A program made the translations under genes and the position numbers. 64,000 nt of DNA. Origin: an uncultured Candidatus Rokubacteria bacterium. GTDB lineage: Bacteria; Methylomirabilota; Methylomirabilia; Rokubacteriales; DASRDR01. Shown piece by piece: positions 35,030 to 50,341 of this stretch. The stretch is taken from assembly GCA_963805625.1 (NCBI GenBank), contig CAWDVE010000012.1:32001-96000 (forward strand), in the 5' to 3' direction. The notes under the pieces are model-generated. The model saw only the letters and a list, made by a program, of their open reading frames with translations, was not told the origin of the DNA and did no database searches. Position 1 is the first letter of the stretch, and each line of letters starts with the position of its first letter.

Positions 35030-37480
35030 GTGCCCGCCCGCGCGCCTCCGGCTCCCCTCCCCGCTGGTCGCGTGGGCACCCTTCGCCGGAAACGTCCACC
35101 ACGACTGGCTCCGCTCCCCGACGGTCGGCCGGGCCCGCGTCCGAGGCTTCACGCGAACCGGGTGGGGCCGGCGCTTCGCCCGATCCTGACTCGCGACGCC
35201 GGGTCACCGCCTACCTCCGCCCCGCCTCCGACCCCTGGTGGCTCGGACCGCGAGGTCGCCGCCCCGGTTCTCGGTCTCCCGCGCCGTCGGCGCGGAGGGG
35301 CGCGGGCCGAGGCGACGGCGCTCCTCGCCCTCTACGGGTTGCTCCTCGTCGTCCCGTCGGCCAACTACCACCTCTTCGACGGCCTGCCTGCGAGCCGCGT
35401 GCCCGAATTCCTCGGGCTCGCCCTGCTCATCCCTTTGGTCGTCAGCCGGGCCCTCCGCCGCCTGTACGGCCGGCTCGTCGGCGGGTGGCCGGTGACGCGA
35501 CGTGCCCTCTTGGCGCTCGGCGCGGTCGCCCTCGCGGCGAAGGTCGTCCTGCTCGCCTCGGGGACTCATGCGGGCTTCCTGGCTTGCTACCGTTCGCCCA
35601 TCGCCGCGCCGCCCGCCGGACCCTGCGAGAAGTCATACGAGAACCCGTTCTCCCGCTTCGGCGTCACGCGGATCGACCGGCGTCTCGACTTCATCCCGGC
35701 CAACTGGGACCTGTCCTTCATCAACTCGCTGCGGTTCAACATCTATCACTGGGTCGCGGGCAACGTCGTCCGGGATCGTCTCCCCCTGGCCGCGACCTGG
35801 ACCGGGACGGTCGCGCGCTCGCGCGCCTGGACGGCCGAGGTACGCTACGTCGGCGCCGCCACCGTCCAGGTCGACTCGATGGAGCCGACGAGGCTCCGCC
35901 CCCGCTACGACACGCTGGCCGTCGCCCACGTGCCCATCCCCGCCGGCCGCCATCGCCTCGTCGTCACCTACGAGTTCGACGACGGCTCCCGAGTCGGCGA
36001 CGGGCACACGCGGGGCCCCTACGCCACCATTCGGCTGGCCCGGCTGAGCGAAGCGCCGGGCCCGGCGATGCCGGTGAGGCCGGTGCGACCGCCGCGGGCG
36101 TGGCGGTGGACCGGCGCGGCGGTCGACGCGGTCGTCGTCCTCCTCGCGGCGACGGTGGCCGGGGCGTGCGCCGTCGCTATGGCCCGCGAGGCGTGGATCC
36201 CGGCCGTCGTCGCGGTCGCGGCGGCCGGCAGCCACCTCTGGGACGGACGGCTGCCCGTCGTTCCGTCGCACTCGTGGTTCTTCCTCCTGCTCGCGCTCCT
36301 TTTCGCGCATCTCGCCCTGGGCGTCCGCCCGCAGCGGCTGCTGGGCGCCTACCTCGGCATCCTTGCGGCAGCCTTCTTCCTGGCGTGGCGGCGACTCGGC
36401 CGGTTGAACGTCGTCCAGTACCGGGCGGCCGGCGATGACTGGCTGACGTACGAGTCCTTCGCGCGGTCCATCCTCGAGACCTGGTCGCTCCGGGGCGCCG
36501 AGGACGTCTTCTACTACCAGCCACTCTTCCGCTACGTCCGCTTCGCCGAGCATTTCGTGCTGGGGGACGGCGATCCGTTCCTCCTGACGTGGGCGGTCGT
36601 GACGCTCACGTGGAGCCTATTCTGGCTCGGCGCGGTCGCGATCGGGCGGCGGCGCGCGTCGTTCCGGACCATCGTCCTCACCTTCGCCGGTCTGCTGCTG
36701 GTGCTGCTGGCGACCTCCCCGACGGTCCTCGACCTGGTGCACGCGGGAGTCTCCGAGTATCCAACCTGGATCGCGCTGCCCTTCTTACTGCCGATGCTCT
36801 TCGTGTCGTCCTCGACGAGGGCCTGGCTGCTGGGGGCGACCCTGCTGGGCCTCTCGCTCCTGACGAGAACGAACCAACTGCCGGCCGTCCTGGCGACGCT
36901 CGGGCTTTTCCTGTGGCGGGGCTGGCGGATCCGACCCCGCGCGGCCATCGCGGCCGGGCTCATGTTCGGCGCTGTCGCGCTGCTTCCCACGCTTCACAAC
37001 TACTACTACGGCGGTCGCCTGGTGCCGCTGACGACCAGCGCCGGGATCCCGGCGAATCTCGTGCTCCCGCCCGTGCGGTTGCTCGACGTCGCCCGCGACG
37101 CGGAGGTGCGGACGCGGCTCCGGACGCAGGTCGAGCGGATGCTGTACGTCGGTGGGTCCGACCGCGTCTTCGGGATGGCGGTCCGCGGGCTGCAGGTGCT
37201 GTGGGTGGTCACGGTCGGGGCGTGGGCGGTGACTGGCCGTGCGAGCTTGCCCCTCGCGCTACTGGTGGGCCTCCCCGTCTGCTACCTCGTTCCCCACGTC
37301 TTCTACCAAGCGACGCACGGCTATCCGCGGCACTTCCTCATTGGCTACCTCGCCATGGGGGCGGTCGTCCTCCTGGCCGAAGCGGGCTCGCGAGGCATTG
37401 CCCGGTCCGCGGCTCCGGCGATCGAATCGACGCCGCGAGAAGCGCCCATCATCCGGACGAGTCGGGGACCAATGGGCTGA
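35030..37480 (+). CDS. Large multi-pass membrane protein (GT-C-like) with PA14-like extracellular domain
   Basis: RIDRRLDF...ATWTG...G-x-H-x-L-x-V-x-Y beta domain, followed by GDDWLTYE, FYYQPLFRY and many TM segments. Start uncertain. Confidence 0.5.
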   Translation: MPARAPPAPLPAGRVGTLRRKRPPRLAPLPDGRPGPRPRLHANRVGPALRPILTRDAGSPPTSAPPPTPGGSDREVAAPVLGLPRRRRGGARAEATALLALYGLLLVVPSANYHLFDGLPASRVPEFLGLALLIPLVVSRALRRLYGRLVGGWPVTRRALLALGAVALAAKVVLLASGTHAGFLACYRSPIAAPPAGPCEKSYENPFSRFGVTRIDRRLDFIPANWDLSFINSLRFNIYHWVAGNVVRDRLPLAATWTGTVARSRAWTAEVRYVGAATVQVDSMEPTRLRPRYDTLAVAHVPIPAGRHRLVVTYEFDDGSRVGDGHTRGPYATIRLARLSEAPGPAMPVRPVRPPRAWRWTGAAVDAVVVLLAATVAGACAVAMAREAWIPAVVAVAAAGSHLWDGRLPVVPSHSWFFLLLALLFAHLALGVRPQRLLGAYLGILAAAFFLAWRRLGRLNVVQYRAAGDDWLTYESFARSILETWSLRGAEDVFYYQPLFRYVRFAEHFVLGDGDPFLLTWAVVTLTWSLFWLGAVAIGRRRASFRTIVLTFAGLLLVLLATSPTVLDLVHAGVSEYPTWIALPFLLPMLFVSSSTRAWLLGATLLGLSLLTRTNQLPAVLATLGLFLWRGWRIRPRAAIAAGLMFGAVALLPTLHNYYYGGRLVPLTTSAGIPANLVLPPVRLLDVARDAEVRTRLRTQVERMLYVGGSDRVFGMAVRGLQVLWVVTVGAWAVTGRASLPLALLVGLPVCYLVPHVFYQATHGYPRHFLIGYLAMGAVVLLAEAGSRGIARSAAPAIESTPREAPIIRTSRGPMG

Positions 37481-39302
37481 CCAGTCGTGCGAAGTAGGCG
37501 CTTTTCTCGACGACGTCCGCGTAGGACCCCGCCGCGGTGACCATGCCGTCTTCGAGGACGATGATCTGATCGCAACCGGCGATGGCGGAGGCCCGGTGCG
37601 TCACGGCGACGACGGTCCGCGGCTGATCGCGTCGGAGGGCCGCCCTGATCACCGTGGCCTCCCCATACGGATCCAGGGCGGAGGTCGCCTCGTCCAGGAC
37701 GAGGAGGCTGGGGTCGGAGTAGAGCGCCCGCGCCACGGCCAACCGCTGCCGCTGGCCGCCGCTCAGCGCCGACCCTCGCTCACCGAGCTGCGTGTGGAGC
37801 CCGCGCGGGAGCTGTTGGACCAGCTCCCAGAGCCCGACCTCCTCGAGCACGTGCTCGACACGGTCCTCGTCGATCGCGTCGGCGAAGAGCACGACGTTCC
37901 GGAGGATCGAGTCGTTGAAGATGTAGGGCTCCTGGGACACGACCCCGACGCCAGCCTGCCAGCCAGGTTCGAGTCCGCCCAGCGGCCGGCCGTCCAGTAG
38001 CACCTCGCCCGAAGTCGGCTCGAGCAATCCGACCAGGAGATCGACGAACGTGCTCTTCCCGGCACCGCTCGGCCCGACGATCCCCACGAAGCTGCCGGCC
38101 TCGATTCGGACCGTCACGTCACGCAGGGCCGGACGCTTCGACTCCTCGTACCAGGACGACACGCGCCAGAACTCGATGGCGACGTTCAGCACGGGAGGCC
38201 TCTTCGCCGGGCCGGTGCCGCCAGTGTATCGAGGACCGGCGGCGCCTCGAACGGGGACGTCCTGCAGCACCTGGTCGACGAACGGGAGACCGGCGCGAAC
38301 ATTCGCGAGATTGGTCGCGCTCCGGCCCGCCAGGGGCAACAGCCGGACGAGCGCGTACGCGAAGAGTCCGAGCATCGTCAGGACACGAGGCGTGTCGTAT
38401 TCCAGGCCGATCGTGAAGATGATGAGACTCGCGACTAGTATCATCGTGACACCCTCGATCACGATGCGCGGCAGGTCGACGAGGATCGCCCGATAACGGT
38501 TGGCGGCGGCCACCTTGGCGCGCTCCTCCCGGTGGCTGGACACCACGGGCGCCTCATGGTGGCGGAGGGTGATCTCGCGGCGTCCCTGCAGGACCTGATC
38601 CACGAACAGGTTCGCCGAGCGATCGTGCCGCTCGATGAGCGCGGTCGCTTCGTGGAGACGCGGGTTGACCGCCCTGACCAGCACGACGATCACGCCGGCC
38701 ACGAACGCCGCGGCGGCCAGCGTCCCCCACGGCGAGGCCACCACCATGACCGAGAGGATCGATGCGATGACGGCCGCGTCCGTAAGGAACTGGACGCCGG
38801 GCCGGAACACCTGCCACGCGACGAGCGTGGCGAGCTGCGAGACCCGCCGCTGGAGGTCCGCGACGCGGCGCTGCCTGAACCTGGCATACGGCATGCTCAC
38901 GTAGGCCCAGAGGAGGGCTTCGCCGATGACGATACCGGTCTCGACCGTCGCCGAGGAGGCGGCCGCCGTCAGCGCGAGAGTCAGGGCGGCCCGGAGCAGG
39001 AAGACGGCGACGACCACGGCCGTCACCAGAGCGGCCGTCGACGCCCCCACGAGGAGGAGCGGCGCTTCCGTCGCCCACGGCAGCAACGCCCGGGAGCCGG
39101 ACCCGGCCGACTGCGTCGCCAGCCGGATCACGTTGAGGAAGAGCGCGGTCGTGGCCAGCTCCGCCAGGGAGCAGAGACCGGTGAGGACCATCAGAAGAAC
39201 CCATCGGCGACGGACACGGCGGGGCAGCAGCCTGTAGATGGCCCGCGCCCGCGCCCACACCGACGCGGACGTGACCGGATCGCCCGCGTCCACCCGTGGC
39301 AT
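37449..39302 (-). CDS. ABC exporter, fused permease and ATPase
   Basis: GPSGAGKST, LSGGQRQRLAVARALY, LDEATSALD and VTHR motifs, with an N-terminal TM domain and no C39 peptidase domain. Start is at 39302 or 39452. Confidence 0.9.
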   Translation of the reverse strand: MPRVDAGDPVTSASVWARARAIYRLLPRRVRRRWVLLMVLTGLCSLAELATTALFLNVIRLATQSAGSGSRALLPWATEAPLLLVGASTAALVTAVVVAVFLLRAALTLALTAAASSATVETGIVIGEALLWAYVSMPYARFRQRRVADLQRRVSQLATLVAWQVFRPGVQFLTDAAVIASILSVMVVASPWGTLAAAAFVAGVIVVLVRAVNPRLHEATALIERHDRSANLFVDQVLQGRREITLRHHEAPVVSSHREERAKVAAANRYRAILVDLPRIVIEGVTMILVASLIIFTIGLEYDTPRVLTMLGLFAYALVRLLPLAGRSATNLANVRAGLPFVDQVLQDVPVRGAAGPRYTGGTGPAKRPPVLNVAIEFWRVSSWYEESKRPALRDVTVRIEAGSFVGIVGPSGAGKSTFVDLLVGLLEPTSGEVLLDGRPLGGLEPGWQAGVGVVSQEPYIFNDSILRNVVLFADAIDEDRVEHVLEEVGLWELVQQLPRGLHTQLGERGSALSGGQRQRLAVARALYSDPSLLVLDEATSALDPYGEATVIRAALRRDQPRTVVAVTHRASAIAGCDQIIVLEDGMVTAAGSYADVVEKSAYFARLVSPLVPDSSG

Positions 39303-39537
39303 CACGATCGGCGGCGCGACGCTCGACCGCTCAGGGAGCGCGCCGGGACACGACCCCACGAATGGCTCGTCGTGGGCGGCCCCATACTTTCGGTGCCCGC
39401 CGTCGGACCTCGGCCTCGAGGCCGCCCGGACATCGATGGCGGCCCGATCCACGATCCACGCCGGCGCCCAGGAGCGCCGATGGGCCCGCTTTGGGCGTGG
39501 GCATCACCGGGTCGATGGCCTCGGCACGGCGGCGGGT

Positions 39538-40728
39538 TCAGTGATGATGGTGCTCGTACGCCCCCGCGGCGAGCCGGAAGAGGCGAAGGGGGTAGTGGAG
39601 GAATGACAGCGCGCGCGGCAGTCTCCGCGCTGCCCAGTCCTCGACCGTGAGGGTCGTCATCGCCAGCCAGCAGTACCGGACCCGATGGCGCCACCGCTCC
39701 CGGACGCGGAGCTGGAATCGGGCCTGCTCGAGGAGGCCGGAGGGGCGGCCGTCGTCCCGAAACAGCCGCGCCCGGACCGCGGCTGCCAGCGTAGGGACGA
39801 CGGCGTCCACCTCCGCCCGCCGCCGCACCGGCCCGGGCATCGGGGCGCCGAGCAGGTCCGCGGCCACTCGGAGCCCCAGCGCGAGCATCCGCTCGCTGGC
39901 AGCTTGCCGGGCCTCCGCCACCATTCGCGCCCAGTCGAGGCCGGGCCGGGCCCGCGTCAGCTCGGCGATGTCGCAGATCCAGATCAGGCGCTCCCACATG
40001 TGCTTGGCTCCGTGCTCGCAGAGGCTCGGCAGGAGGACCTCGGGCGCTAGCGTCGTGACGGTGGTGCCGGCAATCGTGACCGGCTCGAGCCGCTCCCAGA
40101 GTCGCTTGGGCTCGAGGAGCAGCGAGACGTGCCGCGGCGAGATCTCCCAGTGCAGCTCCACCATGGCCGATCGGTCGGGGCGCACCAGCGAGTAGGCGTG
40201 CTGGGACTCGACCAGCGCCTGCTCCTGGCTCTGGCTGAGCGCCACGTTCGGACGGAAGCCCTCGGCGACCAGGACGTCCTTCGCGCGTAGCACCTCCTGC
40301 TTGTTCACCAGGATGTCGAGATCGGAGAAGTCCCGGAGGCCGACGTGGCCGTAGGCCGTCATGGCCAGGGCCGGGCCGCGGTAGGGGATGGCCGGGATGC
40401 CCTCAGCGGTGAAGCGTTTCAGGATGGAGCAGAGCTGAAGGGCCAGGAAGAGGTTGCGGCGCTGGGTCTTCTCGAAGCTTTCCCTGAGGCGCTCGGGCAC
40501 CCCGGCGGGGAGCAGGCCGGGCTCCACCCCCTTGAGGTGCCAATGCACCAGTGGCAGCACCCCGTGCCATCGGGCCGTTCGGAGGATGTACTCCCAGTCG
40601 AGCTCCCGGTCGAGAAGCCCACGGAGGCGCTCGGCCGTCGGCGGGTCCATCCGCGTGCGCGCGCAGGCCAGCAGGAGCTCGCCCTCGGGACGGGAGCTGG
40701 TGGGTCCCGCCGGGGTGCCGGGTGACAC
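39538..40728 (-). CDS. Nucleotidyltransferase family protein (NTP_transf_5-like, lasso-cluster type)
   Basis: WHGVLPL, PYRGPALA..YG...LRDFSDLDILV, VELHW and HGAKH.W.RL.W..D motifs. Confidence 0.88.
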   Translation of the reverse strand: MSPGTPAGPTSSRPEGELLLACARTRMDPPTAERLRGLLDRELDWEYILRTARWHGVLPLVHWHLKGVEPGLLPAGVPERLRESFEKTQRRNLFLALQLCSILKRFTAEGIPAIPYRGPALAMTAYGHVGLRDFSDLDILVNKQEVLRAKDVLVAEGFRPNVALSQSQEQALVESQHAYSLVRPDRSAMVELHWEISPRHVSLLLEPKRLWERLEPVTIAGTTVTTLAPEVLLPSLCEHGAKHMWERLIWICDIAELTRARPGLDWARMVAEARQAASERMLALGLRVAADLLGAPMPGPVRRRAEVDAVVPTLAAAVRARLFRDDGRPSGLLEQARFQLRVRERWRHRVRYCWLAMTTLTVEDWAARRLPRALSFLHYPLRLFRLAAGAYEHHHH

Positions 40729-40994: not shown

Positions 40995-41017
40995 TATCTT
41001 CCAGCGTGAGGGAACTC

Positions 41018-41293
41018 ATGTCCAATGCGTTCGTCGCAGCAAGGGGGTTGGAAACGACCCCCCTTGAGGAAGGCGCCGTCCTGTTCCATCCAAAGCTCGG
41101 CAAGTTCGTCATGCTCAATCGATCGGCGGCCTTCCTTTGGAGCGAACTGGCGACGCCCAAGACGGAGGAGGAGCTGGCCCGTCGCTTCGCGGCCAACTTC
41201 ACCGATGCGGCGCCGGAGACGTCTCGGCAGGACGTGCGTGAGGCCCTGGCCAAGCTGCGGGAGTTGGAGCTCGTCTCCCCGGCTGAGGCCTAA
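41018..41293 (+). CDS. Stand-alone PqqD-family RiPP recognition element (RRE)
   Basis: 91 aa: EEGAVLFHP..GKFVMLNRSAAFLWSEL..PKT.EEL...F......DVREALAKLRELELV. GAGGGA RBS upstream. Confidence 0.9.
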   Translation: MSNAFVAARGLETTPLEEGAVLFHPKLGKFVMLNRSAAFLWSELATPKTEEELARRFAANFTDAAPETSRQDVREALAKLRELELVSPAEA

Positions 41294-41319
41294 CACAACC
41301 AACCCGGGGAGGCCAACAG

Positions 41320-41466
41320 ATGGATCAGCAGGCGACGGCGCGGTACGAGCGGCCCTCGATCACAGTGATGGACGAAGAGGAGCTGCTGAAGGTCTTCCAG
41401 ATGACGGCAGCGGAGATCAGCGTGGCGTCCTGCTGGTGGAACGCCTGCCCGACCGGTTGCCCGTAA
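41320..41466 (+). CDS. Putative RiPP precursor peptide, 48 aa: MDQQATARYERPSITVMDEEELLKVFQMTAAEISVASCWWNACPTGCP
   Basis: Manually translated. GGGGAGG RBS lies 7 nt upstream of the ATG, directly after the RRE gene. YxxPxI RRE-binding motif, acidic leader and Cys/Trp-rich C-terminus. Confidence 0.88.
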   Translation: MDQQATARYERPSITVMDEEELLKVFQMTAAEISVASCWWNACPTGCP

Positions 41467-41492
41467 CGCCCACATCCTCGATCGTTCGAGCT

Positions 41493-41531
41493 CACGGCCT
41501 CGGTGCTCCGGCAACGGACGCCGAGGCCGTG
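41493..41531 (+). terminator. Strong stem-loop downstream of the precursor (mRNA stabiliser or leaky terminator)
   Basis: CACGGCCTCGGTG-C-TCCG-[GCAA]-CGGA-CGCCGAGGCCGTG forms about 17 bp of stem with a GNRA tetraloop, followed by a poor U-tract (tgttg). Confidence 0.7.
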
Positions 41532-41601
41532 TGTTGATGAGCGCCTTCTTGCGAATCCTGGGCGTCGCGGCCTGCGACTGACGCGAAGCGGGGGACAAGG
41601 A

Positions 41602-42420
41602 ATGGGAGCAGCGGCTCAGTACGCCACGAAGGTCGTACGTGGAGTGACTCTCCGTGCGGACCCGGCCCGCGAGGCCTGCTTCAAGGTCGTGAACGACGCC
41701 ACCGATCTGGCGGACTATGCGGACATGTCGCCGGTGGCCCGGCGTCAGCGGCTCCACAAGCACATGCACAACGAGATGCAGAGTCTCGAGATGGCGGCGC
41801 AGTCCGTGGCCGACTTCCCCGACGCGCCGTGGGACGTCAGGATGGGGCTGGCCCGCCAGTGCTGGGACGAGACCCGGCACTCTCAAATCCTCCACCGGCG
41901 GCTCCGGGAGGTCGGGGGCTACAAGGGCGAGTTCCCGGTGATGAACTTCGAGTGGAGCATCACCTGCATGATGGACTCTCTCTCCGCGCGGCTGGCCATC
42001 CAGAACCGCACGTTCGAGGGGGGGGAGATCGACCTCCTGCGGCATCTTGTCGGCGTGTGGCGGGAAGAGGGCGACAACGACACCGCCGATCTCCTCGACG
42101 GGATCCTCGTCGACGAGATCCAGCACGTCCGCCTGGCCAACGAGTGGTTCAAGCAGATGTCCCGGCAGGATCCGACGGTGCTGCTGAAGCTGGCCGCGGC
42201 CGTCAACTTCCTGAAGCGCGTCACCCAGGCGTTCCAGCCGGCTCCCGGCGAGGTGAATGCCGCCGGCGTGAACCTCACCGGCTTCGAGCATGTCGAGATG
42301 CTCTCGAACGTCGAGGACCGGCTCCGCGCGGGATTCACGGAGCGGGAGATCGCCCAGATCCAGCTTCAGGAGAGCCAGCTGCGGGCCTCTGCGGCAGCAG
42401 AGAAGACCGCCGTATCCTAG
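41602..42420 (+). CDS. Ferritin-like diiron protein (DUF455-like), paralogue 1
   Basis: Four-helix diiron ligand pattern: HNEMQSLE, WDETRH, NRTFEGG and DEIQHV. Confidence 0.8.
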   Translation: MGAAAQYATKVVRGVTLRADPAREACFKVVNDATDLADYADMSPVARRQRLHKHMHNEMQSLEMAAQSVADFPDAPWDVRMGLARQCWDETRHSQILHRRLREVGGYKGEFPVMNFEWSITCMMDSLSARLAIQNRTFEGGEIDLLRHLVGVWREEGDNDTADLLDGILVDEIQHVRLANEWFKQMSRQDPTVLLKLAAAVNFLKRVTQAFQPAPGEVNAAGVNLTGFEHVEMLSNVEDRLRAGFTEREIAQIQLQESQLRASAAAEKTAVS

Positions 42421-42437
42421 ATACGGCCGGCGACCGG

Positions 42438-43547
42438 GTGTCAACCGCCGTCGGACTCGGCCGGTGGAACGCGACGCTCGAGCGCGTCCTGGAGGCGCCG
42501 GAGCCGCGGCCCCGCCAGACTGAACCAGTCTGGTTCCGGTTCGGCGACGGGTTCTTGGAGGTCGTCTCCGACCACGAGCCGCTCCTCCGCGACCTCGAGG
42601 CCTTCTACGGGGACTGCGGGATCGCCGAGCCTCCCGCAGAGGGATGTCGGGTCCGCTGCACCGCGAGCCTGCTCCCCGGCGTCCCGTTGCTGTCCCTCTC
42701 GTTCAGCGGGCCACGCCAGCCCGATCTGATCGAGGTCGCGCGGAGCCCCTACCGGTTTCGCCGGCGCGAGCCGTACATCGAGGCTCCCGGCCCGGCGCCC
42801 GGCTGGCGCCTGCTGGTGAATCGCGATGCGGACGACCGCCTCCTCATCGCGACCAACGGCCGGGTGAGCTTGGTCAACCTCGACGAAGCGCCGGCCGAGT
42901 TCGTCGTCGACCTGGTCGTCTCCGCGGCCCAGAGTATCCAGACCGGGGTGCTGTTCCTCCACGCCGGCTCCGTGGGCGTCGGCGGAACGGGCGCCCTGAT
43001 CATCGCCCCGACCAACGGGGGCAAGTCGACGACCACCCTCGCCCTGGCGCGGCGCGGCCATGCCTTCCTCGGCGACGACGTGGCGGCGGTGCGGCTGGCC
43101 ACCCGCGAGCTGCTGCCGTTCCCGAGGTCGGCCGGGCTGCGGGAAGGATCCCTGGCCCGATCCCTGGAGGGGCAGGTGCAGGGGTGCCGCCACGTGCGCG
43201 CCACGAACCGTCACGGGATCGAGCGGGCCGTCGTGCGGGTCAGCGATCTCTTCCCCTGGTCGGTCAGCGGCCCGCTGCCCCTCCGGTTCGCGTTCGTCCT
43301 CGACGGGCTGGCGGAGAGCGCCGCGATCTCGGAGTTCCGGCCTGGGCTCGGCGAGCTGCCCCGGCTCCAGTCGACGGTGACCGACACGTCGACATCCTGG
43401 GGGCTCTCGCCCGGGCGTGACCTGATGCTGTTCCTCTCGGTGGTGAACCTTCTGTCCGGCCTGCGCTGCCATCTCGTGCAGCGCGGCTCCCCGGACGAGA
43501 CCGCACGCGTCATCGAAGCCGCCATCATGGAGGGAACATGTACCTGA
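42438..43547 (+). CDS. HPr kinase-related P-loop kinase
   Basis: LFLHAGSV....GALIIAPTNGGKSTTTLALARRG..FLGDD..V......LPFPR. GTG start inferred. Confidence 0.8.
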   Translation: MSTAVGLGRWNATLERVLEAPEPRPRQTEPVWFRFGDGFLEVVSDHEPLLRDLEAFYGDCGIAEPPAEGCRVRCTASLLPGVPLLSLSFSGPRQPDLIEVARSPYRFRRREPYIEAPGPAPGWRLLVNRDADDRLLIATNGRVSLVNLDEAPAEFVVDLVVSAAQSIQTGVLFLHAGSVGVGGTGALIIAPTNGGKSTTTLALARRGHAFLGDDVAAVRLATRELLPFPRSAGLREGSLARSLEGQVQGCRHVRATNRHGIERAVVRVSDLFPWSVSGPLPLRFAFVLDGLAESAAISEFRPGLGELPRLQSTVTDTSTSWGLSPGRDLMLFLSVVNLLSGLRCHLVQRGSPDETARVIEAAIMEGTCT

Positions 43548-44098
43548 ACGTGAAGGAGCGGGGCGACCACGTAGCCACCTTTCGCTGGATCGAGGTGCGC
43601 CTGATGGAGATGTTGGCCGCCTGGGTCCCCACCACGCCCGAGATGGAGGTGAAGCTCGTCTTCGGAGCCCACATCTGGGAGGCCGCGCAGCATGCGGACG
43701 CGCTGGGGAAGCGGACCCACGAGCTGCGGCTGCCCCTCCACGACAGCCTCGAGCCCGCCCGTGGGTACGTCGACTTGCTCACGGAAGTGGCCAGGACGAC
43801 CGACACCAGCAAGCGGATCGCCGCGTTCTACGATTGCCTGCTCCCGGGCCTCGAGCAGCGCTTCCGGCGTTACATCGAGCGGGTCGACACGCTCCTGGAC
43901 GGCCCCACCGTCCGGATCCTCGAGCGGATCATGGGCGACATGGCCCGCATGACGGCCGACTGTCGCGCCCTCCTAGAGGAGGTGCCGGCCGTCAAGCTCA
44001 AGGACCACAAGTGGCTCGATGCGCTGCGCCAGCGCGAGGCAGGTCTCGGTGACATCATCGTCCACCGGGTGTCGAGCCCGGCGGCGGTCCCGGCGTGA
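43538..44098 (+). CDS. Short ferritin-like protein with degenerate metal ligands, paralogue 2
   Basis: WIEVRLMEMLAAWVPTTPEMEVKL.FGAHIWEAAQHADALGKR..EL. The second ExxH is absent. GGAGG RBS, and the gene overlaps the kinase stop. Confidence 0.6.
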   Translation: MYLNVKERGDHVATFRWIEVRLMEMLAAWVPTTPEMEVKLVFGAHIWEAAQHADALGKRTHELRLPLHDSLEPARGYVDLLTEVARTTDTSKRIAAFYDCLLPGLEQRFRRYIERVDTLLDGPTVRILERIMGDMARMTADCRALLEEVPAVKLKDHKWLDALRQREAGLGDIIVHRVSSPAAVPA

Positions 44099-44808
44099 GC
44101 GTCATGGCCAGCATCGGCACGATCGTGGTGCGCGGTGGCGTCACTCTGCGAGCGAGCCCGGCTCGAGACTCCTGCTTCAGGATCGTCACCGACCAGGCCG
44201 ACATGGTGAAGCATCCCGACGGGTCGCTCGAAGCGCGTCGGGAGCAGCTGCACAGCGATGTGAACAACGAGCTCCAGAGCCTGGAGATCGCCGCCCAGTC
44301 GATCGTCGACTTTCCCGAAGCGCCCTGGGAGCTGCGCCTCGAACTGGCCCGCCAGTGCTGGGACGAGGTACGCCACGCCCGCCTGTTCCTCGGCCGGCTT
44401 CTCGCGCTCAAGGGATACCTGGGGGAGTTCCCCATCATCAACCAGGAGTGGGGCGTCGTCTGCATGTTCGACTCCCTCCCGGCGAGACTTGCGGTCCAGA
44501 ACCGGATCTTCGAGGGCCTGTCACTCGACGTCTTCAAGGAGAGCGTCGAGGTGTGGGCGGGCTGGGGCGATCCCGAGACGGCCGAGGTCATGGAAGGCGT
44601 CATGGTCGACGAGATCCGGCACGCGGCATTTGCCCAGGAGTGGCTTCGCCGCCTGGGAGCCGGTAACCCGGGCGTGACGCTCAAGGCCGTGGCGGCCATG
44701 AGCCAGCTGAAGACGATGAGCATCGCCTTGACCCCCGCCGGGCAGAAGATGGAGCACGAGATCCCGGTCAACACCGAGGACCGGCGTCACGCCGGGCTTC
44801 CCATCTGA
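44095..44808 (+). CDS. Ferritin-like diiron protein (DUF455-like), paralogue 3
   Basis: NNELQSLE, WDEVRH, NRIFEG and DEIRH motifs. Clearly similar to 41602-42420 (VRGGVTLRASPARDSCF versus VRGVTLRADPAREACF). Confidence 0.8.
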   Translation: MSVMASIGTIVVRGGVTLRASPARDSCFRIVTDQADMVKHPDGSLEARREQLHSDVNNELQSLEIAAQSIVDFPEAPWELRLELARQCWDEVRHARLFLGRLLALKGYLGEFPIINQEWGVVCMFDSLPARLAVQNRIFEGLSLDVFKESVEVWAGWGDPETAEVMEGVMVDEIRHAAFAQEWLRRLGAGNPGVTLKAVAAMSQLKTMSIALTPAGQKMEHEIPVNTEDRRHAGLPI

Positions 44809-44816
44809 GTTCGCCC

Positions 44817-45560
44817 ATGAGTACGCCTCAGGACGCCGCTCGCCCTCCGCTCGACCCGGCGCTGTTCGCCGATGGCCCGGCGCGCGATTCGCGGTTCGCG
44901 GTGAAGGACCGCTGGATTGAGATGGCCAACACCCCGGCCGACCATCCCCTTCATCAGATGGAATTCACGCATCGCCAGATGAACGAGGAGATCAACGGCC
45001 TCGAGTGCTCGGCGCGCGGCCTGAGCGACTTCCCGGACGCGGCCTGGGAGCTCCGGATGGCGCTGGCCAGGCAGTGCGTCGACGAGGCGCGCCACGTCAA
45101 GATGTTCCGGCGCCTCCTCGAGCGCCTCGGAGGGCACGTCGGGCAGTTCCCGGTGCTCAACTTCCAGTACCGCATCATCACGAAAGCGGACAGCCTGATC
45201 GGCCGGCTGACGATCCAGAATCGTACGTTCGAGGCTGGCGGGCTCGACGCCGTCTCCGCGGTGGTCGAGCAGATGCGGGCGAGGGGCGACGACGACCTCG
45301 AGCTGTTCTTCGACTCCCAGCTGGCCGACGAGATCCTCCACGTGCGCTTCGCCAACGAGTGGATTCGCCGGCTGATCCACGAAGACCCGCGAAACGTTCT
45401 CCGGATGGGGAGCGCGATGACGGCCGCGGCGAAGGCGTTCAAGCAGGTGATGGGAAGGGAAGGGACGGAAGGAGTCAGCTATCCCACCGACAGACAGGCT
45501 CGTTTGGAGGCGGGGTTCACCCCCAGTGAGGTCGAGATGGACGCGGGGTCCAAGGCCTAG
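44817..45560 (+). CDS. Ferritin-like diiron protein (DUF455-like), paralogue 4
   Basis: NEEINGLE, VDEARH, NRTFEAGGLD and ADEILHV motifs, with a C-terminal ARLEAGFT as in DUF455. Confidence 0.82.
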   Translation: MSTPQDAARPPLDPALFADGPARDSRFAVKDRWIEMANTPADHPLHQMEFTHRQMNEEINGLECSARGLSDFPDAAWELRMALARQCVDEARHVKMFRRLLERLGGHVGQFPVLNFQYRIITKADSLIGRLTIQNRTFEAGGLDAVSAVVEQMRARGDDDLELFFDSQLADEILHVRFANEWIRRLIHEDPRNVLRMGSAMTAAAKAFKQVMGREGTEGVSYPTDRQARLEAGFTPSEVEMDAGSKA

Positions 45561-45594: not shown

Positions 45595-46200
45595 ATGACG
45601 AGGTCGCTCAGCGAGGCGGACACGGCGACGTCCCGTCCTGATCCGGTCCAGGCGGTCGCGGCTTTCTTCCGGGAGGATCCGGCGCGCATCCTCGCTGTCG
45701 CTTCGAGCCTCCGAGGCCCCGACCGCAGCATCGAGTCCACCGTCGAGGGTAAGAGCATGGGGCGGACGCTCCCGCCCGGCTCTCGGATCCGCATCGAGCT
45801 GGCCGATCGACCCGGTTACGAGGTCGGGGAGGTGGTCGCGTTCCTGGCCCGGGGCAAGGTCGTCGTGCACCGGGTGGTGCACAAGAGCCAGCGGGGTGCG
45901 GCTCGCGGCCGGCTCCTCACGCGGGGCGACGCCGCGCTGGTCCCCGACCCGGCGATCGACGTGGCGAGCGTCCTGGGCGCGGTGACCGCGATCGACCGTG
46001 ACGGAGGCTGGGTGCCGCCGGATGGACGGCCCCGCCGATCGCTCCCCGCTCGAGTCGTGGCCTCGCTCGCGCTGGCCATCGTCGCGCGCGTGCTGGAGGC
46101 GAGCCCTCGGGCCGCGGACGTCGTCGTGCGGCTGCTCCACCGAGGACGGCCGCTCCATGCGGCGTGCCTGCGTCACGGCGGGCGAGGGGTGGCACCATGA
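45595..46200 (+). CDS. S24/S26 family (signal-peptidase-like) Ser/His peptidase
   Basis: VEGKSMGRTL..G, GEVVAF, VVHRVV and TRGD motifs. No N-terminal TM anchor. Confidence 0.82.
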   Translation: MTRSLSEADTATSRPDPVQAVAAFFREDPARILAVASSLRGPDRSIESTVEGKSMGRTLPPGSRIRIELADRPGYEVGEVVAFLARGKVVVHRVVHKSQRGAARGRLLTRGDAALVPDPAIDVASVLGAVTAIDRDGGWVPPDGRPRRSLPARVVASLALAIVARVLEASPRAADVVVRLLHRGRPLHAACLRHGGRGVAP

Positions 46201-46961
46201 AGCTGGTCGCCCAGACCTCGCAGTTCCACGTCTATGACGACGTCCTGCTGGAGAAGGATTTCCGCGCGGTTTGGAACTACGTCCAGCTCGAATCGTACGT
46301 GCCGGTACACCACGACGGCTGGGTGAAGGTCTGGCGCATCTCCGACGGCGTCCCGCTGGGCGCGTTGGCGACCGTGCTCTACGAGAGCCCCAAGCGTCCG
46401 GCCGGATCGGAGGACGCCAAGGGCACCCGCATCTATCCCACGCACACGGGGCTCGACCGGGTGCTGGAAGCCCTCAGGACCCATGCCGACCAGCTGGCCG
46501 ACCTCGTCGGCAAGTGGGGCGCCGATTTCGACAACGTGAGCGCTCGTGCGTTCCTCTATCCGCAGGGGACGGGGCTGTCCTGGCACGAGGACGCGGTCAA
46601 CTACACCGGCGGGTACGCCTTCTACGCGCATCCGGAATGGAACGTCCAGTGGGGCGGCGAGCTCCTCGTCGCCGACGAGTCCGCCAGGTCCCAGCATTTC
46701 GAGGACGACCGGCTCCCGGTTCTTACGCGCACGGAGGAGGGGCTCCGGCTCACCAAGGTGCGCATCCCGCCGTTCCTCGACAATGCGCGCCAGAATACCG
46801 TGCTCGCGCAGCGCGGCATGGGATGCTACATCACTCCGAAGCCCAACCGACTGGTCGTGATCGCTGCCGGGAACGCCCACATGATCAACCGGGTCCACCC
46901 GGCCGCCGGAGACCACGTCCGCTGCACGATCGCGGGCTTCTTCATCTCCTCCAAGGTTTGA
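46197..46961 (+). CDS. Fe(II)/2-oxoglutarate oxygenase (prolyl-4-hydroxylase-like)
   Basis: LSWHED, Y.HPEWNVQWGGEL, PKPNRLVV...H.I..V and R.TIAGFF motifs. ATGA-coupled. Confidence 0.85.
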   Translation: MKLVAQTSQFHVYDDVLLEKDFRAVWNYVQLESYVPVHHDGWVKVWRISDGVPLGALATVLYESPKRPAGSEDAKGTRIYPTHTGLDRVLEALRTHADQLADLVGKWGADFDNVSARAFLYPQGTGLSWHEDAVNYTGGYAFYAHPEWNVQWGGELLVADESARSQHFEDDRLPVLTRTEEGLRLTKVRIPPFLDNARQNTVLAQRGMGCYITPKPNRLVVIAAGNAHMINRVHPAAGDHVRCTIAGFFISSKV

Positions 46962-47017
46962 CCGCGAGCGGAAGCATGCGTCGGCCGCTGCCAAGGGCCG
47001 CCTGAGACCGTCGGCCC

Positions 47018-48721
47018 ATGCGGGGTGGCTTCGTCGTCTGCCTGAACGGAAACGGGCGCCTTCTCGACCAGGTCGTCGAGCACGTGCGCTGGCACCACGG
47101 CAAGGGCATCCGGGATCACCGCGATGGCCTGGAGATCGCCGCCCTCGTCGACGGCGCCGACGGCCCGGCCATCGAGATCGGAGCCGGCCGGACCGTCCTG
47201 GTCCATGGCGCCGCCCCGGCGCCCCTCGCCGAGCTCCAGCGCCGCGGGACGCGGTTCGCGGCGATCGAGTGGGACGGAGTGCGATTGCGCGCCAGCCGGG
47301 ATCCGATGGGCCTCGCCCCGCTGTTCTACCGGGCGTATCAGGGAGTCGTGTGGCTTGCCACGGAAGTGCAGCCCCTGGTCGCCCTGGGACGCGCGGCTCC
47401 GGACCTGGAAGCGCTCACGGCCAGGACCGCGTTCACCCCGATCGACGATCGGACGGGCTGGGAGGGCATCGGGCGCGTGCTCCCCGGGTCGACGCTCGAG
47501 TTCGGCCCCGATCGGCAAGTCTCCTCCGCCCGCTACTGGCAACCGGCCGAGGCCCTCGGTCGGTACCGGGGCAGTCGCGCCGAGGCGCTGGCGGAGTTCC
47601 GGGAGCGGTTCCGCACGGCGGTGGGGCGGTGCTACGAGCCCGGTGGCGGCATCCTGCTCAGCGGGGGTCTCGACTCGGCGGCGGTGGCCCTGACGGCGGC
47701 CGAGCAGGGGCAAACCCGCCCGCATCTGGTGCATGTCCACTTCCCCGACCTTCCCGAGACGCACGAGCAAGGATACGCCAGTGCGGTGGCGGCCGCCGTT
47801 GGCGCTCCGCTCCACGTCGTCCCCGGGCAGGTCGACCCCTGGGACGTGGACCCCGAGCTCGACGGCTGGGGAGGGATCGCTTACAGCTGGGTGCCCTACG
47901 GCATGGAGGACCCCGCCCTGGCCCACATGGCGGCCTCGGGTGTCACGGTGGCGCTGGACGGCCACGATGGAGATGGCGCCCTCGGTCCCCTCGGCTCCAA
48001 CTGGGGCGACATGATCCTGAAGGGGGAGCTTCGCCAAGTCGCCGCGCTGGCCGTGCGCCATGGCGCGTGGGCGCTCGTCCGCGGGGTCGCCGTCGATTTC
48101 CTTCCGCCGTACGCCTGGTTACGCCGGCTGGCCGGCCGCCCTCCCCGAGCAACCTACATGCAGTCGGTCGCTCACTACTTTCGCGGGCCCCTCCGCGACC
48201 GCAGCCTCGCGGCCGACATCGAGCGGTGGACGTGGCCGTCGAGGCGCTGGGGGGTGCGGCAGCTCCAGCCGCTGCTTCCGCGTGCGACGATCTCCTTCGA
48301 GCAGAAGGAGCTCGAGGCGGCTCGCCACGGCCTCGACATGCGCCATCCCTTTGCCGACCGTGAGCTGGTCGAGTTCCTCATCTCGCTCCCGTCGGCCGTG
48401 AAGAGCGATCCGATGCGTCCCAAGGCGATCCTCGTGGACAGCCTGAGCGACCTGCTTCCCAAGGCCGTCCAGCAGCGCCCAAAAAGCGACTACATGGCCG
48501 CCGTCCGACAGCGGGTGGACCCGGCCGCCTGCATCGAGAGGATCCGGGCCTCGGGCGTTCGCCTGCCGGGCATCGAGTACGGACGACTCCTGGACGACGC
48601 CCGGCTCGATCCCAACGGGCTGCCGCTGTTCTTCCTCGTCAATCTCACCCGGATCCACGCGTTCGCCCAGCGGGCCCTCGAAGCGGCCGGCGGCTCCGGG
48701 AAGGGGGCGCCCCATGTCTGA
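47018..48721 (+). CDS. Asparagine-synthetase-related ATP-dependent amide ligase (lasso-cyclase-like), lacking the glutaminase Cys
   Basis: RDPMGLAPLFY, LSGGLDS, GHDGD and RHPFADRELVEF motifs. The N-terminus is MRGG rather than MCG. Confidence 0.82.
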   Translation: MRGGFVVCLNGNGRLLDQVVEHVRWHHGKGIRDHRDGLEIAALVDGADGPAIEIGAGRTVLVHGAAPAPLAELQRRGTRFAAIEWDGVRLRASRDPMGLAPLFYRAYQGVVWLATEVQPLVALGRAAPDLEALTARTAFTPIDDRTGWEGIGRVLPGSTLEFGPDRQVSSARYWQPAEALGRYRGSRAEALAEFRERFRTAVGRCYEPGGGILLSGGLDSAAVALTAAEQGQTRPHLVHVHFPDLPETHEQGYASAVAAAVGAPLHVVPGQVDPWDVDPELDGWGGIAYSWVPYGMEDPALAHMAASGVTVALDGHDGDGALGPLGSNWGDMILKGELRQVAALAVRHGAWALVRGVAVDFLPPYAWLRRLAGRPPRATYMQSVAHYFRGPLRDRSLAADIERWTWPSRRWGVRQLQPLLPRATISFEQKELEAARHGLDMRHPFADRELVEFLISLPSAVKSDPMRPKAILVDSLSDLLPKAVQQRPKSDYMAAVRQRVDPAACIERIRASGVRLPGIEYGRLLDDARLDPNGLPLFFLVNLTRIHAFAQRALEAAGGSGKGAPHV

Positions 48722-49475
48722 CGCCGCGGCGGGGACGGGTTCGGCCGCGTCCGCGCTCGCGCGGGACGGCTTCGCCGGTCCGTTCCCGCTCGGGACCCCG
48801 GCCCAGATGAGCGTCGTGGCCCTCCAGCTGTTCAAGTCGGTGTTCACCCGGCCGGGACCCTTCGCCGACGACCCCTTCCTCGATCGCCACCTCGATTCGC
48901 CGCTGGTCGCCCACCTGGCCACGCATCCCGCGATCCTCGCCCGGGTCGAGCCGCTCCTGGGCGGCGACCTCGTCGCCTGGCGATCGATCTTCTTCGCCAA
49001 GGGCCCGACGAGCCGGGAAGTGCCGTGGCATCAGGACGGCCACTTCTGGAACCTCGATCCGCCGATCACGCTCACCGCGTGGCTCGCGATCGACCGCGCC
49101 CACGGCGCCGATCACTGCATGGAGGTCGTGCCCGGCTCCCACCGGACGGCGCTTCCGCACGTCCCGTCGGCTCCGGGATCCCAGTTCCCGGAGAGCACCG
49201 CCCCCGGGTCCTTCGACCTCTCCCGAGCGATCGAGCTGCCGGTGGATGCCGGGATGTTCGTCCTGTTCGACCAGCGCCTCGTGCACCGTTCGAAGGGAGG
49301 CGGCCAGGCGCGGCGCCTCGCCCTTTCGGTGAGGATCGCCCCCGCGCACGTCCGGATCCCCCCCCACTTGCTGCCTCCGGGTGGCCGCGTGCTGCCTTTT
49401 GGGTGGAGGTCCCTCGCCGAGTCACCCCTCGAGGCCTCCCGGTCCGCCTCGTCCGACCCGCGCCGCGCCTCGTGA
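48714..49475 (+). CDS. Phytanoyl-CoA dioxygenase (PhyH)-family Fe(II)/2OG oxygenase
   Basis: FFAKGP..VPWHQDG.FW, TAWLAID, VVPGSH and LVHRS..RRLA motifs. Confidence 0.88.
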   Translation: MSDAAAGTGSAASALARDGFAGPFPLGTPAQMSVVALQLFKSVFTRPGPFADDPFLDRHLDSPLVAHLATHPAILARVEPLLGGDLVAWRSIFFAKGPTSREVPWHQDGHFWNLDPPITLTAWLAIDRAHGADHCMEVVPGSHRTALPHVPSAPGSQFPESTAPGSFDLSRAIELPVDAGMFVLFDQRLVHRSKGGGQARRLALSVRIAPAHVRIPPHLLPPGGRVLPFGWRSLAESPLEASRSASSDPRRAS

Positions 49476-50341
49476 CGCGCCCCGGCGACGCCAGCCCGGC
49501 CGACGCCGCCATGCGGGAGGCGCGCGAGCAGTCCTGGTTCCACACGATCAATCTTCCCGACGGCAGCAGCACGCGCGGTGTCTTCGACAACCGGGGCGTG
49601 GCCCGGCTGGTGCAGTGGCCGGCCGGCCTGCCCGGCGGCCGGTGTCTCGACGTCGGGACGTGTGACGGCTTCTGGGCCTTCGAGATGGAGCGCCGCGGCG
49701 CCGCCGAGGTCACCGCGATCGACGTGGACGACCCCGCCCACCTCGACTGGTCGTGGGAGTCCCGCCGCAACCCAGACGCCACGCAGGCATGGCGGGCGCG
49801 TCGGGGCCACCGCTTCGACATCGCCCGCCGCGCTCTGGGGTCGCGGGTGAACCGGGTGGCCTGCTCCGTCTACGATCTCGACCCGTCCGTCCACGGCCGG
49901 TTCGACGTGGTCTTCTGCGGGACCCTGCTGGTGCATCTCCGGGACCCGGTCCGGGCGCTCGAGCGCATGCGCGAGGTCTGCGCGGGCGAGCTCGTTCTCG
50001 TCGAGTGCATCGACGCGGTCCTGGACGTGGTCGCCTGGCGGGTGCCTTGCGCCCGATTCACCCCGGCGGCCGAGCAGTGGTGGCGGCTCAATCGGGCCGG
50101 GCTCCTCCGCATGCTGCGGGTCGCCGGCTTCGACGTGCTGTGGGCGAGCCGCCGGTTTCACACGCCGTTCGGGCCGAGCGTGCTGCTTCACCCGTCCCGG
50201 CGGTTCGGGCCGCTCCGCGCCGGCCGGGCGGCGGTGGCCCAGGTGCTGCGGGCGTTCCCGAGCGCCCCGGTCCTGGCCGATGCCGCCGGGCTGGCGCTGG
50301 GCACGTACGACGTCGCCGTCCGCGCCCGGCCCCGACCGTGA
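49472..50341 (+). CDS. Class I SAM methyltransferase (CmoB/DUF1698-like)
   Basis: WFHTINL, RCLDVGTCDGFWAFEMERRGA and FDVVFCG.LLVHLRDP motifs. GTGA-coupled (alternative ATG at 49511). Confidence 0.85.
   Translation: MTRPGDASPADAAMREAREQSWFHTINLPDGSSTRGVFDNRGVARLVQWPAGLPGGRCLDVGTCDGFWAFEMERRGAAEVTAIDVDDPAHLDWSWESRRNPDATQAWRARRGHRFDIARRALGSRVNRVACSVYDLDPSVHGRFDVVFCGTLLVHLRDPVRALERMREVCAGELVLVECIDAVLDVVAWRVPCARFTPAAEQWWRLNRAGLLRMLRVAGFDVLWASRRFHTPFGPSVLLHPSRRFGPLRAGRAAVAQVLRAFPSAPVLADAAGLALGTYDVAVRARPRP

Follow-up and report, generated by a model that had tools for sequence, protein, structure and literature searches.

A peptide gene cassette with three DUF455 ferritin-like proteins and a ligand-poor partner in an uncultured Candidatus Rokubacteria bacterium

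Layout of the cassette and its precursor family

A gene cassette resembling those for peptides that are made by ribosomes and modified after translation (RiPPs) and containing four ferritin-like genes, F1–F4, was found in a 64,000-nt stretch of DNA (hereafter the window) from an uncultured Candidatus Rokubacteria bacterium (assembly GCA_963805625.1, contig CAWDVE010000012.1, positions 32,001–96,000). F1–F4 are the open reading frames (ORFs) starting at 41602, 43538, 44095/44104, and 44817, exactly where a preliminary description of the sequence had placed them. On balance, the four proteins probably form the oxidative core of a RiPP pathway, with F1 and F4, assisted by F2 as a likely scaffold, oxidizing a Trp-Trp pair (WW) of the precursor peptide and F3 performing a further step at a downstream Cys; that the ferritin-like set acts on the neighboring precursor is in itself highly probable. 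The cluster is real, widespread, and undescribed in the searchable literature, a body of text that leaves subscription papers largely outside, so that an unseen report is possible.

The remaining genes recall the biosynthetic genes lppA-K-B-S-D-N of the linear polyphosphorylated peptides (LPP) from Paenibacillus alginolyticus (Popov et al. 2026, PMC13381572), and they are listed here with their LPP counterparts. Counts out of 30 refer to the "wide loci", 30 related loci with long flanks, and counts out of 47 to distinct core peptides.

37449..39452, minus strand: ABC exporter with membrane and ATPase domains, like LppD (ABC_tran 109 bits; ABC_membrane 21 bits, below its cut-off; 15/30 wide loci)
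39538..40728, minus strand: NTP_transf_5 nucleotidyltransferase, like LppN (204 bits; 22/30 wide loci)
41018..41293, plus strand: stand-alone RiPP recognition element (RRE) of the PqqD family, from profile matches (28/30 wide loci)
41320..41466, plus strand: 48-residue precursor with a YxxP leader and a putative FQxT cleavage site
41407–41463, plus strand: predicted 19-residue core of the precursor, with Cys-Trp-Trp (WW at 41434–41439) and two further Cys
41490..41534, plus strand: stem-loop in the gap from precursor to F1 (z −2.05; 19/47 related loci reach z ≤ −2)
41602..42420, plus strand: F1, DUF455 ferritin-like protein of 272 residues with six diiron ligands, universal orthologue (clade support 0.96)
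42438..43547, plus strand: HPr-kinase-like protein akin to LppK, its GKST and DD motifs intact (profile scores below cut-off; 43/47 cores)
43538..44098, plus strand: F2, ligand-poor protein of 186 residues with a ferritin-like fold, universal
44095 (GTG) or 44104 (ATG)..44808, plus strand: F3, six-ligand DUF455 protein encoded by an optional third catalytic gene
44817..45560, plus strand: F4, DUF455 protein of 247 residues with six ligands, universal orthologue (clade support 0.998)
45595..46200, plus strand: S26/archaeal-type signal peptidase-like leader peptidase, like LppS (TIGR02228 E 2e-9, below cut-off; 30/30 wide loci)

F1–F4 are not contiguous because the HPr-kinase-like gene (42438–43547) sits between F1 and F2, a separation seen in most clusters. 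The 3' end of this kinase gene, which was detected in 28/30 wide loci, overlaps the start of F2 by 10 nt, and the stop codon of F2 overlaps the GTG start of F3 (GTGA). The stem-loop at 41490..41534 is a possible attenuator or transcript stabilizer. In the S26-like peptidase, S54, H92, and a candidate D112 or D118 were recognized, with the GxSM and HR motifs kept in 42/42 matches. The whole cassette is embedded in a glycosyltransferase-rich region.

A total of 56 loci complete from precursor to F4 yielded the 47 distinct cores; three copies of the window and three duplicates were left out of the counts, as were L010, whose precursor is frameshifted, and L115, which is spread over more than one contig, and the core of L014 came from an unpublished genome (G153) that is also represented in alignments A2–A4. 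All 47 have a [YF]xxP motif 21 residues ahead of an FQx[TS] site, with Thr or Ser at position −1 in 45. By analogy with LppA (PMC13381572), the precursor would be cleaved after FQxT, which places Ser or Thr at core position 5 in 41/47. Trp-Trp is found in 47/47 distinct cores; in 10 of them, Val, Thr, or Ser stands in for the Cys ahead of it. The tails are hypervariable.

A search with F4 returned 26 genome loci, of which 25 carry the cassette and the last is a fusion gene of Paenibacillus. The 25 GTDB cassette loci come from records of Acidobacteriota, Pseudomonadota (alpha, beta, and gamma), Binatota, and Chloroflexota, and the cassette recurs in 80 metagenome loci retained from a further 246 relatives found with the F4 alignment. 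The cassette is patchy: RiPP-type F4 occurs in 3/151 genomes of the host's order, the host included; for three other groups, the figures are 5/401, 1/301, and 3/401 genomes, the center genome included each time. Family-wide genome sampling yielded few extra clusters. The four-gene layout is also present in a cultured strain, Ramlibacter monticola KACC 19175 (L005).

Ferritin-like proteins F1–F4 and their relatives outside the cassette

F1, F3, and F4 exceeded the Pfam cut-off of DUF455 (PF04305; 34.3 bits) with 99.3, 86.9, and 87.6 bits, respectively, and share pairwise identities of 39–48%. The preliminary description had credited each of them with an intact diiron set and several common motifs, and both were recovered: every one carries E...ExxH...E...ExxH together with those motifs, the canonical ligands in F1 numbering being E58, E90, H93, E139, E172, and H175. 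Of 223 distinct catalytic domains, 221 have the full set of six, and the remaining two are gapped at E58. This set was dereplicated from all fetched loci; it includes 18 non-RiPP homologues and omits duplicates of the window and of other loci as well as the frameshifted L008 and L019. E63 and D144, which are nearly invariant across the catalytic domains, would be second-shell acidic residues. From these sequence patterns, F1, F3, and F4 are predicted to be diiron enzymes.

The ferritin-like assignment made earlier was borne out by DUF455 matches, the fold neighbors of F4 and F2, Foldseek, and PDB matches alike. An AlphaFold model of F4 (predicted local distance difference test, pLDDT, 91.5) had structural neighbors (VIA) in the ferritin superfamily, the best being ADO-like (6d9f_A, Z 15.3, root-mean-square deviation (rmsd) 3.9, 203 aligned residues). 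Foldseek with the F4 and F2 models led to the same ferritin-like families, all at E > 0.001, and the best PDB sequence matches were bacterioferritins at E about 1e-5. A ferritin-like fold in common shows no function by itself. DUF455 is large: a single search with F1 gave 1,296 proteins at E ≤ 1e-30. Database entries are named "uncharacterized ferritin-like protein (DUF455 family)". Passages on DUF455 in two papers offer just a fold or family label (PMC4520260, PMC9988556), and no function for it was found in the searchable literature, subscription papers being largely outside that search. Beyond what is recorded for DUF455, the window has a trio of paralogues, a partner poor in ligands, and a peptide as candidate substrate.

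In a tree of a locus subset, F1, F3, and F4 formed separate orthologous groups, F3 being an optional, faster-evolving grade. In the clusters of all 47 cores, the F4 clade (support 0.998) and the F1 clade (support 0.96) are represented by one gene each.

F2 is present in the clusters of 47/47 cores as well, and its median identity of 56% approaches the 61% and 63% of the catalytic genes, compared with 34–38% for kinase, peptidase, and RRE. The ligand-poor partner proposed in the preliminary description is thus supported, being conserved near the catalytic level and fused to DUF455 in distant proteins. The same description took the 43538 protein for a degenerate paralogue that retained WEAAQH; it is indeed ligand-poor, with a predicted ferritin-like fold, but only the His of WEAAQH is in register, because its Glu aligns with D89 and the bridging E90 has given way to Ala. 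E19 of F2 may be the counterpart of E58 but is retained in only 18 of 66 F2 relatives. Of the same 66, 45 have the first His and none has the last; the residues common at the bridging position do not include Glu. No Pfam family, DUF455 included, matched F2 above its cut-off. The AlphaFold model of F2 (pLDDT 93.3) placed a Dps-like protein, a toluene/o-xylene monooxygenase chain (1t0q_B; Z 15.5, rmsd 3.1, 176 aligned), and ADO as tied neighbors (VIA) at Z of about 15–16.

The paralogy of F2 is shown only transitively, through an intermediate from outside the cassette, and by predicted fold. Contig C13 of the host genome carries a second pair, a DUF455 gene followed by an F2-like gene (L112:7664-9028). 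In profile comparisons, F2 matched this C13 partner at E 5e-33, the partner matched its catalytic neighbor at E 9e-6 (probability 83), and that neighbor matched the RiPP-type catalytic genes at E 4e-44. C13-type partners keep the first-helix Glu in 18/18, the first His in 17/18, and the second ExxH in 18/18; they have lost the bridging Glu and so represent an intermediate stage of decay. The C13-type DUF455 gene is single-copy and occurs in 122/151 genomes of the host's order (a count that includes the unpublished genomes G083, G055, and G038). It is adjacent to an F2-like gene in 18/18 non-RiPP loci (17 relatives and the host), usually between iscS/iscU/cysE/dinB-like and biotin-carboxylase(/carrier)-like genes, as named from their translations, and no peptide was detected beside the pair in the 18 loci examined.

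Distant proteins include single-chain fusions of F2-like and DUF455 domains, namely an ORF of L026, P0004, and P0005. The L026 fusion (4025-5633) belongs to Paenibacillus taihuensis and is followed by a 2Fe-2S ferredoxin in a sugar ABC-transport region. P0001–P0003 were not counted as F2–F3 fusions; their middle part is out of frame, and they are probable assembly frameshifts. Because of the fusions, the fixed pairing, the universal presence, and the conservation of F2, it is likely a physically bound scaffold subunit. The series from intact to partly decayed to ligand-poor proteins, with its fusions, is a clear example of how a structural subunit originates, and the C13-type pair is a good target in its own right. 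Elsewhere in the host genome, a third, weak ferritin-like gene was noticed at L113:8072-8482 (G000:C25), with 29 bits to DUF455, below the cut-off, and E 2.5e-6 to F2.

Covariation with the core, proposed pathway, and rival explanations

The window has three catalytic genes and three core Cys, and the preliminary description had raised the idea of one enzyme for each Cys as suggestive only, to be judged by whether paralogue number tracks Cys/Trp number across clusters. Run over the 47 cores, the Cys rule was rejected: the two numbers agree in 20/47, six Cys-free cores keep two enzymes, and what never varies is Trp-Trp. Among two-enzyme clusters, 6, 9, and 3 cores have 0, 1, and 2 Cys, and among three-enzyme clusters, 3, 9, and 17 cores have 1, 2, and 3 Cys. 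The broader proposal of separate enzymes for separate residues found some support for F3 and fails as a one-per-Cys count. An internal Cys after WW is present in 26 of the 29 F3-bearing cores versus 0/18 cores without F3, and sister clusters in which the third aromatic or Cys residue was lost have lost F3 too. Fisher p-values overstate this covariation and were not relied on; the two-/three-enzyme label changes four times on the F4 tree. The spacer is 7 residues long with genes of the F1x subclade (8/8) and 11 residues long with other F1 genes (39/39).

A second association concerns flavoproteins of the HFCD family (PF02441), which lie near 6 of the 7 cores ending in Cys, the seventh being on a short contig, versus 0/40 others; within the wide loci, the figures are 5/5 and 0/25. 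HFCDs are reported to decarboxylate the C-terminal Cys of RiPP precursors (PMC8549060), and the gene cluster is thereby tied to the sequence of its own peptide, since HFCD tracks a C-terminal Cys, its known target. In the window, the last core residue is Pro, and the contig has no PF02441 gene.

These observations suggest a pathway that would begin with binding of the YxxP leader by the RRE, which would present the peptide in the manner of LppB. With F2 bound to each of them, in mixed heterodimers or a larger assembly, F1 and F4 would then activate O2 at their diiron sites. WW is quite likely the main target; it is the sole invariant oxidizable feature and there are two universal catalytic genes, so that oxidation of the Trp pair by F1 and F4 is the simplest reading. 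Both Trp might be oxidized, most plausibly by hydroxylation or desaturation, both of which, together with C–C cleavage, are described for ferritin-like diiron enzymes (PMC12704756), giving an electrophilic Trp that a nearby Cys thiol could trap; as judged from sequence, this exact chemistry is speculative and rather unlikely to be right in every detail. Action of F3 at the downstream Cys is slightly favored, in which case it would close a further link from Trp to a downstream residue, as a rule a Cys, with Trp or His as possible partners in three clusters. The HprK-like kinase would phosphorylate Ser or Thr, with core position 5 as the candidate, the S26 peptidase would cut after FQxT, NTP_transf_5 and variable enzymes would tailor the product, and the ABC transporter would export it. 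Phosphorylation of a newly formed hydroxy-Trp was downgraded because the Ser/Thr at core position 5 (41/47) is an ordinary acceptor. The normal fate of a C-terminal Cys, once decarboxylated, is addition to an unsaturated residue (PMC8549060), and no lanthipeptide-type dehydratase was recognized among the flanking genes scanned; an oxidized Trp as electrophile would fit both the HFCD and the F3 patterns.

A bolder form of this proposal holds that a new enzyme type defines a RiPP class: a modular diiron hetero-oligomer in which the metal-free F2 serves interchangeable DUF455 subunits, one per site, recruited from an ancient pair of catalytic and decayed DUF455 proteins, with Trp-Trp or Trp-S-Cys (or Trp-aminovinyl-thioether) cross-linked polycycles as products. 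This is a tentative possibility, rated below even.

If F1, F3, and F4 were instead independent homo-oligomeric enzymes, one per site, F2 could be a peptide-binding adaptor, a metallochaperone, or a folding helper. Such an arrangement, which agrees with the kinase gene splitting F1 from F2 in most clusters, with the distinct orthologous groups, and with the homodimeric ferritin-like oxygenase BioE (PMC12704756), seems unlikely in view of the conservation of F2, nearly as high as that of the catalytic genes, and of the F2-like/DUF455 fusions and the adjacent pair in 18/18 non-RiPP loci without a detected peptide. Owing to these fusions and the fixed peptide-less pair, the F2-type protein is better understood as a partner of the enzyme than of the peptide. 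It is improbable that the product is a peptide-derived, tryptophylquinone-like redox cofactor, to which kinase and nucleotidyltransferase add a handle, instead of a secreted natural product. WW with a nearby Cys does resemble the building blocks of tryptophan tryptophylquinone and cysteine tryptophylquinone (TTQ/CTQ), and a MauG-family di-haem peroxidase adjoins the window cluster and L091; yet that peroxidase is found in just those two loci, no conserved client dehydrogenase was seen among 97 flanking ORFs of 13 loci, an ABC exporter frequently accompanies the cassette, the tails are hypervariable, and the cassette is patchy across genomes. The YxxP leader and the PqqD-type RRE, which are common to precursors of pyrroloquinoline quinone (PQQ) as well (PMC13381572), also fit a cofactor.

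Conversion of Cys by the diiron proteins in the manner of MbnBC-type enzymes, one enzyme per Cys, would suit the three Cys in 17/29 three-enzyme clusters as against 0/18 two-enzyme clusters, and the three of each in the window. It is very unlikely, given that six Cys-free cores keep F1, F2, and F4, that enzyme and Cys numbers coincide in only 20/47, and that the pre-WW Cys is replaceable; for F1 and F4, this assignment is disfavored. Least credible of all is that the ferritin-like genes are passengers, serving iron storage, stress, or small-metabolite chemistry within an ordinary LPP-type cluster. The near-universal homologous pair without a peptide in the host's order and the bacterioferritins among the best PDB matches would be expected of passengers, but the RiPP-type orthologues are confined to the cassette wherever flanks suffice, the genes are interleaved and coupled with kinase and peptidase genes, and the gene set varies with the core sequence.

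Several points weigh against F1–F4 as a WW-oxidizing complex with F3 acting downstream. Ferritin-like oxygenases usually depend on a ferredoxin or reductase, and no reductase, ferredoxin, or coupling protein was found among the cassette genes of the window, unlike in the PaaABCE and multicomponent monooxygenase systems; the 97 flanking ORFs of the 13 loci contain none either, except one flavin-reductase-like gene in L003, and a 2Fe-2S query matched solely its own locus. Direct comparison of F2 with the catalytic profiles gave no significant similarity, and a fold Z near 15 only modestly exceeds what unrelated helical bundles reach. Three F3-bearing cores lack a downstream Cys and have a third Trp (two) or His (one); a Cys/Trp/His rule fits 29/29 versus 0/18 but was picked post hoc. 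In L084 (8348), a fourth catalytic gene lies beyond the peptidase, outside the enzyme count, in a cluster whose core has only two Cys. The F3 and HFCD trends rest on 2–4 independent contrasts and are not significant: there are two pairs on well-supported branches and four overall, all concordant (sign-test p 0.5), and for internal Cys alone one supported pair, concordant in about 0.8 of pairings. The HFCD-like proteins found here retain the His region, but their second motif is degenerate. The precursor profile itself included WW, which made WW-less precursors harder to detect, but the invariance of WW is not mainly a detection artefact because just 2/58 precursor-less F4 loci have >250 nt upstream of the first recognized gene.

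Relation to known systems and neighboring genes

PaaA/PaaC and the alpha and beta subunits of bacterial multicomponent monooxygenases combine catalytic and metal-free subunits of one fold. The F2 and F4 models match 1t0q_B, 2inn_C, 1mhy_B, and 3pvr among many ferritin-like chains, whereas identity is 8–16%, the subunits are smaller, and the likely substrate is a peptide instead of an aromatic-CoA or hydrocarbon. By Pfam, F1 reached 15.1 bits against the Phenol_Hydrox cut-off of 24.4 bits, and F2–F4 gave no match to the families of these enzymes. MbnBC provides another parallel, oxidation of a precursor by a multi-iron catalytic subunit with a partner subunit, MbnB having another fold. The ligand pattern E, ExxH, E, ExxH of F1, F3, and F4 is that of ADO and of BioE, a validated oxygenase, while those enzymes are homodimers described as acting on fatty aldehydes or acyl-thioesters (PMC12704756). 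VarO, proposed to desaturate a RiPP residue (PMC6511847), is a precedent as a helical-bundle enzyme on a RiPP precursor; it belongs to the heme-oxygenase-like fold, which is distinct from that of ferritin-like oxygenases (PMC13108848) and thus from F1–F4.

All five LPP-type components occur in the window: an archaeal-type signal peptidase, a stand-alone RRE, a kinase resembling HprK, an NTP transferase, and an ABC exporter. A YxxP leader, a cleavage motif ending in Phe...Thr, and a polysaccharide-gene neighborhood are also shared. In LPP biosynthesis, Ser3 is the residue that the kinase phosphorylates, and cleavage by the signal-peptidase-like enzyme follows F-E-T and depends on the RRE (PMC13381572). 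The LPP leader reads YxxPxVLxHQxIxFETxxS with Tyr at −16 and FET, whereas the family in the window has Tyr at −21 and FQx[TS]; Ser occupies core position 3 in 0/47 under the assumed cleavage; the cores are short with an invariant WW; and the records come from phyla other than the Bacillota of LPP. Because leader spacing, cleavage motif, and phosphoacceptor differ, the cassette has an LPP-like scaffold but is not LPP by precursor definition. The main text of the LPP paper describes no oxidase comparable to F1–F4 and contains 0 mentions of DUF455, ferritin, or diiron, and its six supplements contain 0 of DUF455/PF04305 and one "Ferritin" domain count (PMC13381572).

Kinase and nucleotidyltransferase tailoring is likewise known from the lasso peptide clusters of paeninodin and pseudomycoidin, and lasso clusters are described as requiring a B2 protease and a ring-forming Asp/Glu (PMC8498205). 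A lasso assignment was rejected here: the only PF13471 match of the genome lies on contig C16, outside the cluster; under the presumed cleavage, no core has an acidic residue at ring position 7–9, and many have none anywhere; and the asparagine-synthase-like gene scored 92 with the lasso cyclase model, whose cut-off is 525.

Precedents exist both for the scaffold and for the catalytic/structural architecture. New from the window are the four-gene form, the covariation of F3 and HFCD with the core tail, the rejection of the Cys count, and the intermediate non-RiPP pair with its fusions. For DUF455, the cluster names a candidate substrate of 19 residues and predicts the residues acted on, WW for F1/F4 and the downstream Cys for F3. 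If these are right, the oxidases that define RiPPs would include ferritin-like diiron enzymes alongside P450s, radical SAM enzymes, and MNIOs, and the oxidative cores carried by the LPP scaffold would be exchangeable.

Downstream of the peptidase gene lies a variable tailoring block (46197..50341), which is mostly outside the core gene set.

46197–46961, plus strand: 2OG-Fe(II) oxygenase (2/30 wide loci)
47018–48721, plus strand: asparagine-synthase-like protein (21/30 wide loci)
48714–49475, plus strand: PhyH dioxygenase (2/30 wide loci)
49472–50341, plus strand: methyltransferase (3/30 wide loci)

The MauG/CCP-family di-haem peroxidase adjoining the cluster occupies 50469–52523 (minus strand) of the window and, in the other locus, L091:694-2043; a link to the cassette was downgraded, as only these two loci have it. 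The ORFs at 33563–34612 (minus strand) and 57179–58393 (plus strand) look like putative transposases, IS630-like and ISAzo13-like, respectively. Transposase-like ORFs thus flank the polysaccharide/RiPP region on both sides, consistent with an acquired island. RNA-library contigs of close relatives from four studies span the RRE and precursor (e.g., 41012–41463, with 15 differences) and pieces of F1–F4; they were not counted as expression evidence, with word shares of 0.05–0.11, since contigs cannot rank expression or exclude DNA.

Among the related loci, one lineage without kinase and nucleotidyltransferase (L006:2051-5971, L066, L068) has an APH-family phosphotransferase next to the HFCD gene, and L006 and L066 encode a protein, presumably with a sulfotransferase-like N-terminal motif, that has no Pfam match. 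L086:212-4117 contains a second kinase/F2/peptidase set downstream, with F2 apparently broken. Genes of the fatty-acid-hydroxylase family (membrane diiron) lie near clusters, those with short cores also having an unnamed membrane protein (L017, L096, L105, L116, L136, L137, L025). Elsewhere in the host genome, a second NTP_transf_5 protein, 46% identical (G000:C13 568886-570022), a second RRE-like gene (G000:C13 241086-240856), and a lasso B2-like protease (G000:C16 415543-415851) suggest further RiPP loci.

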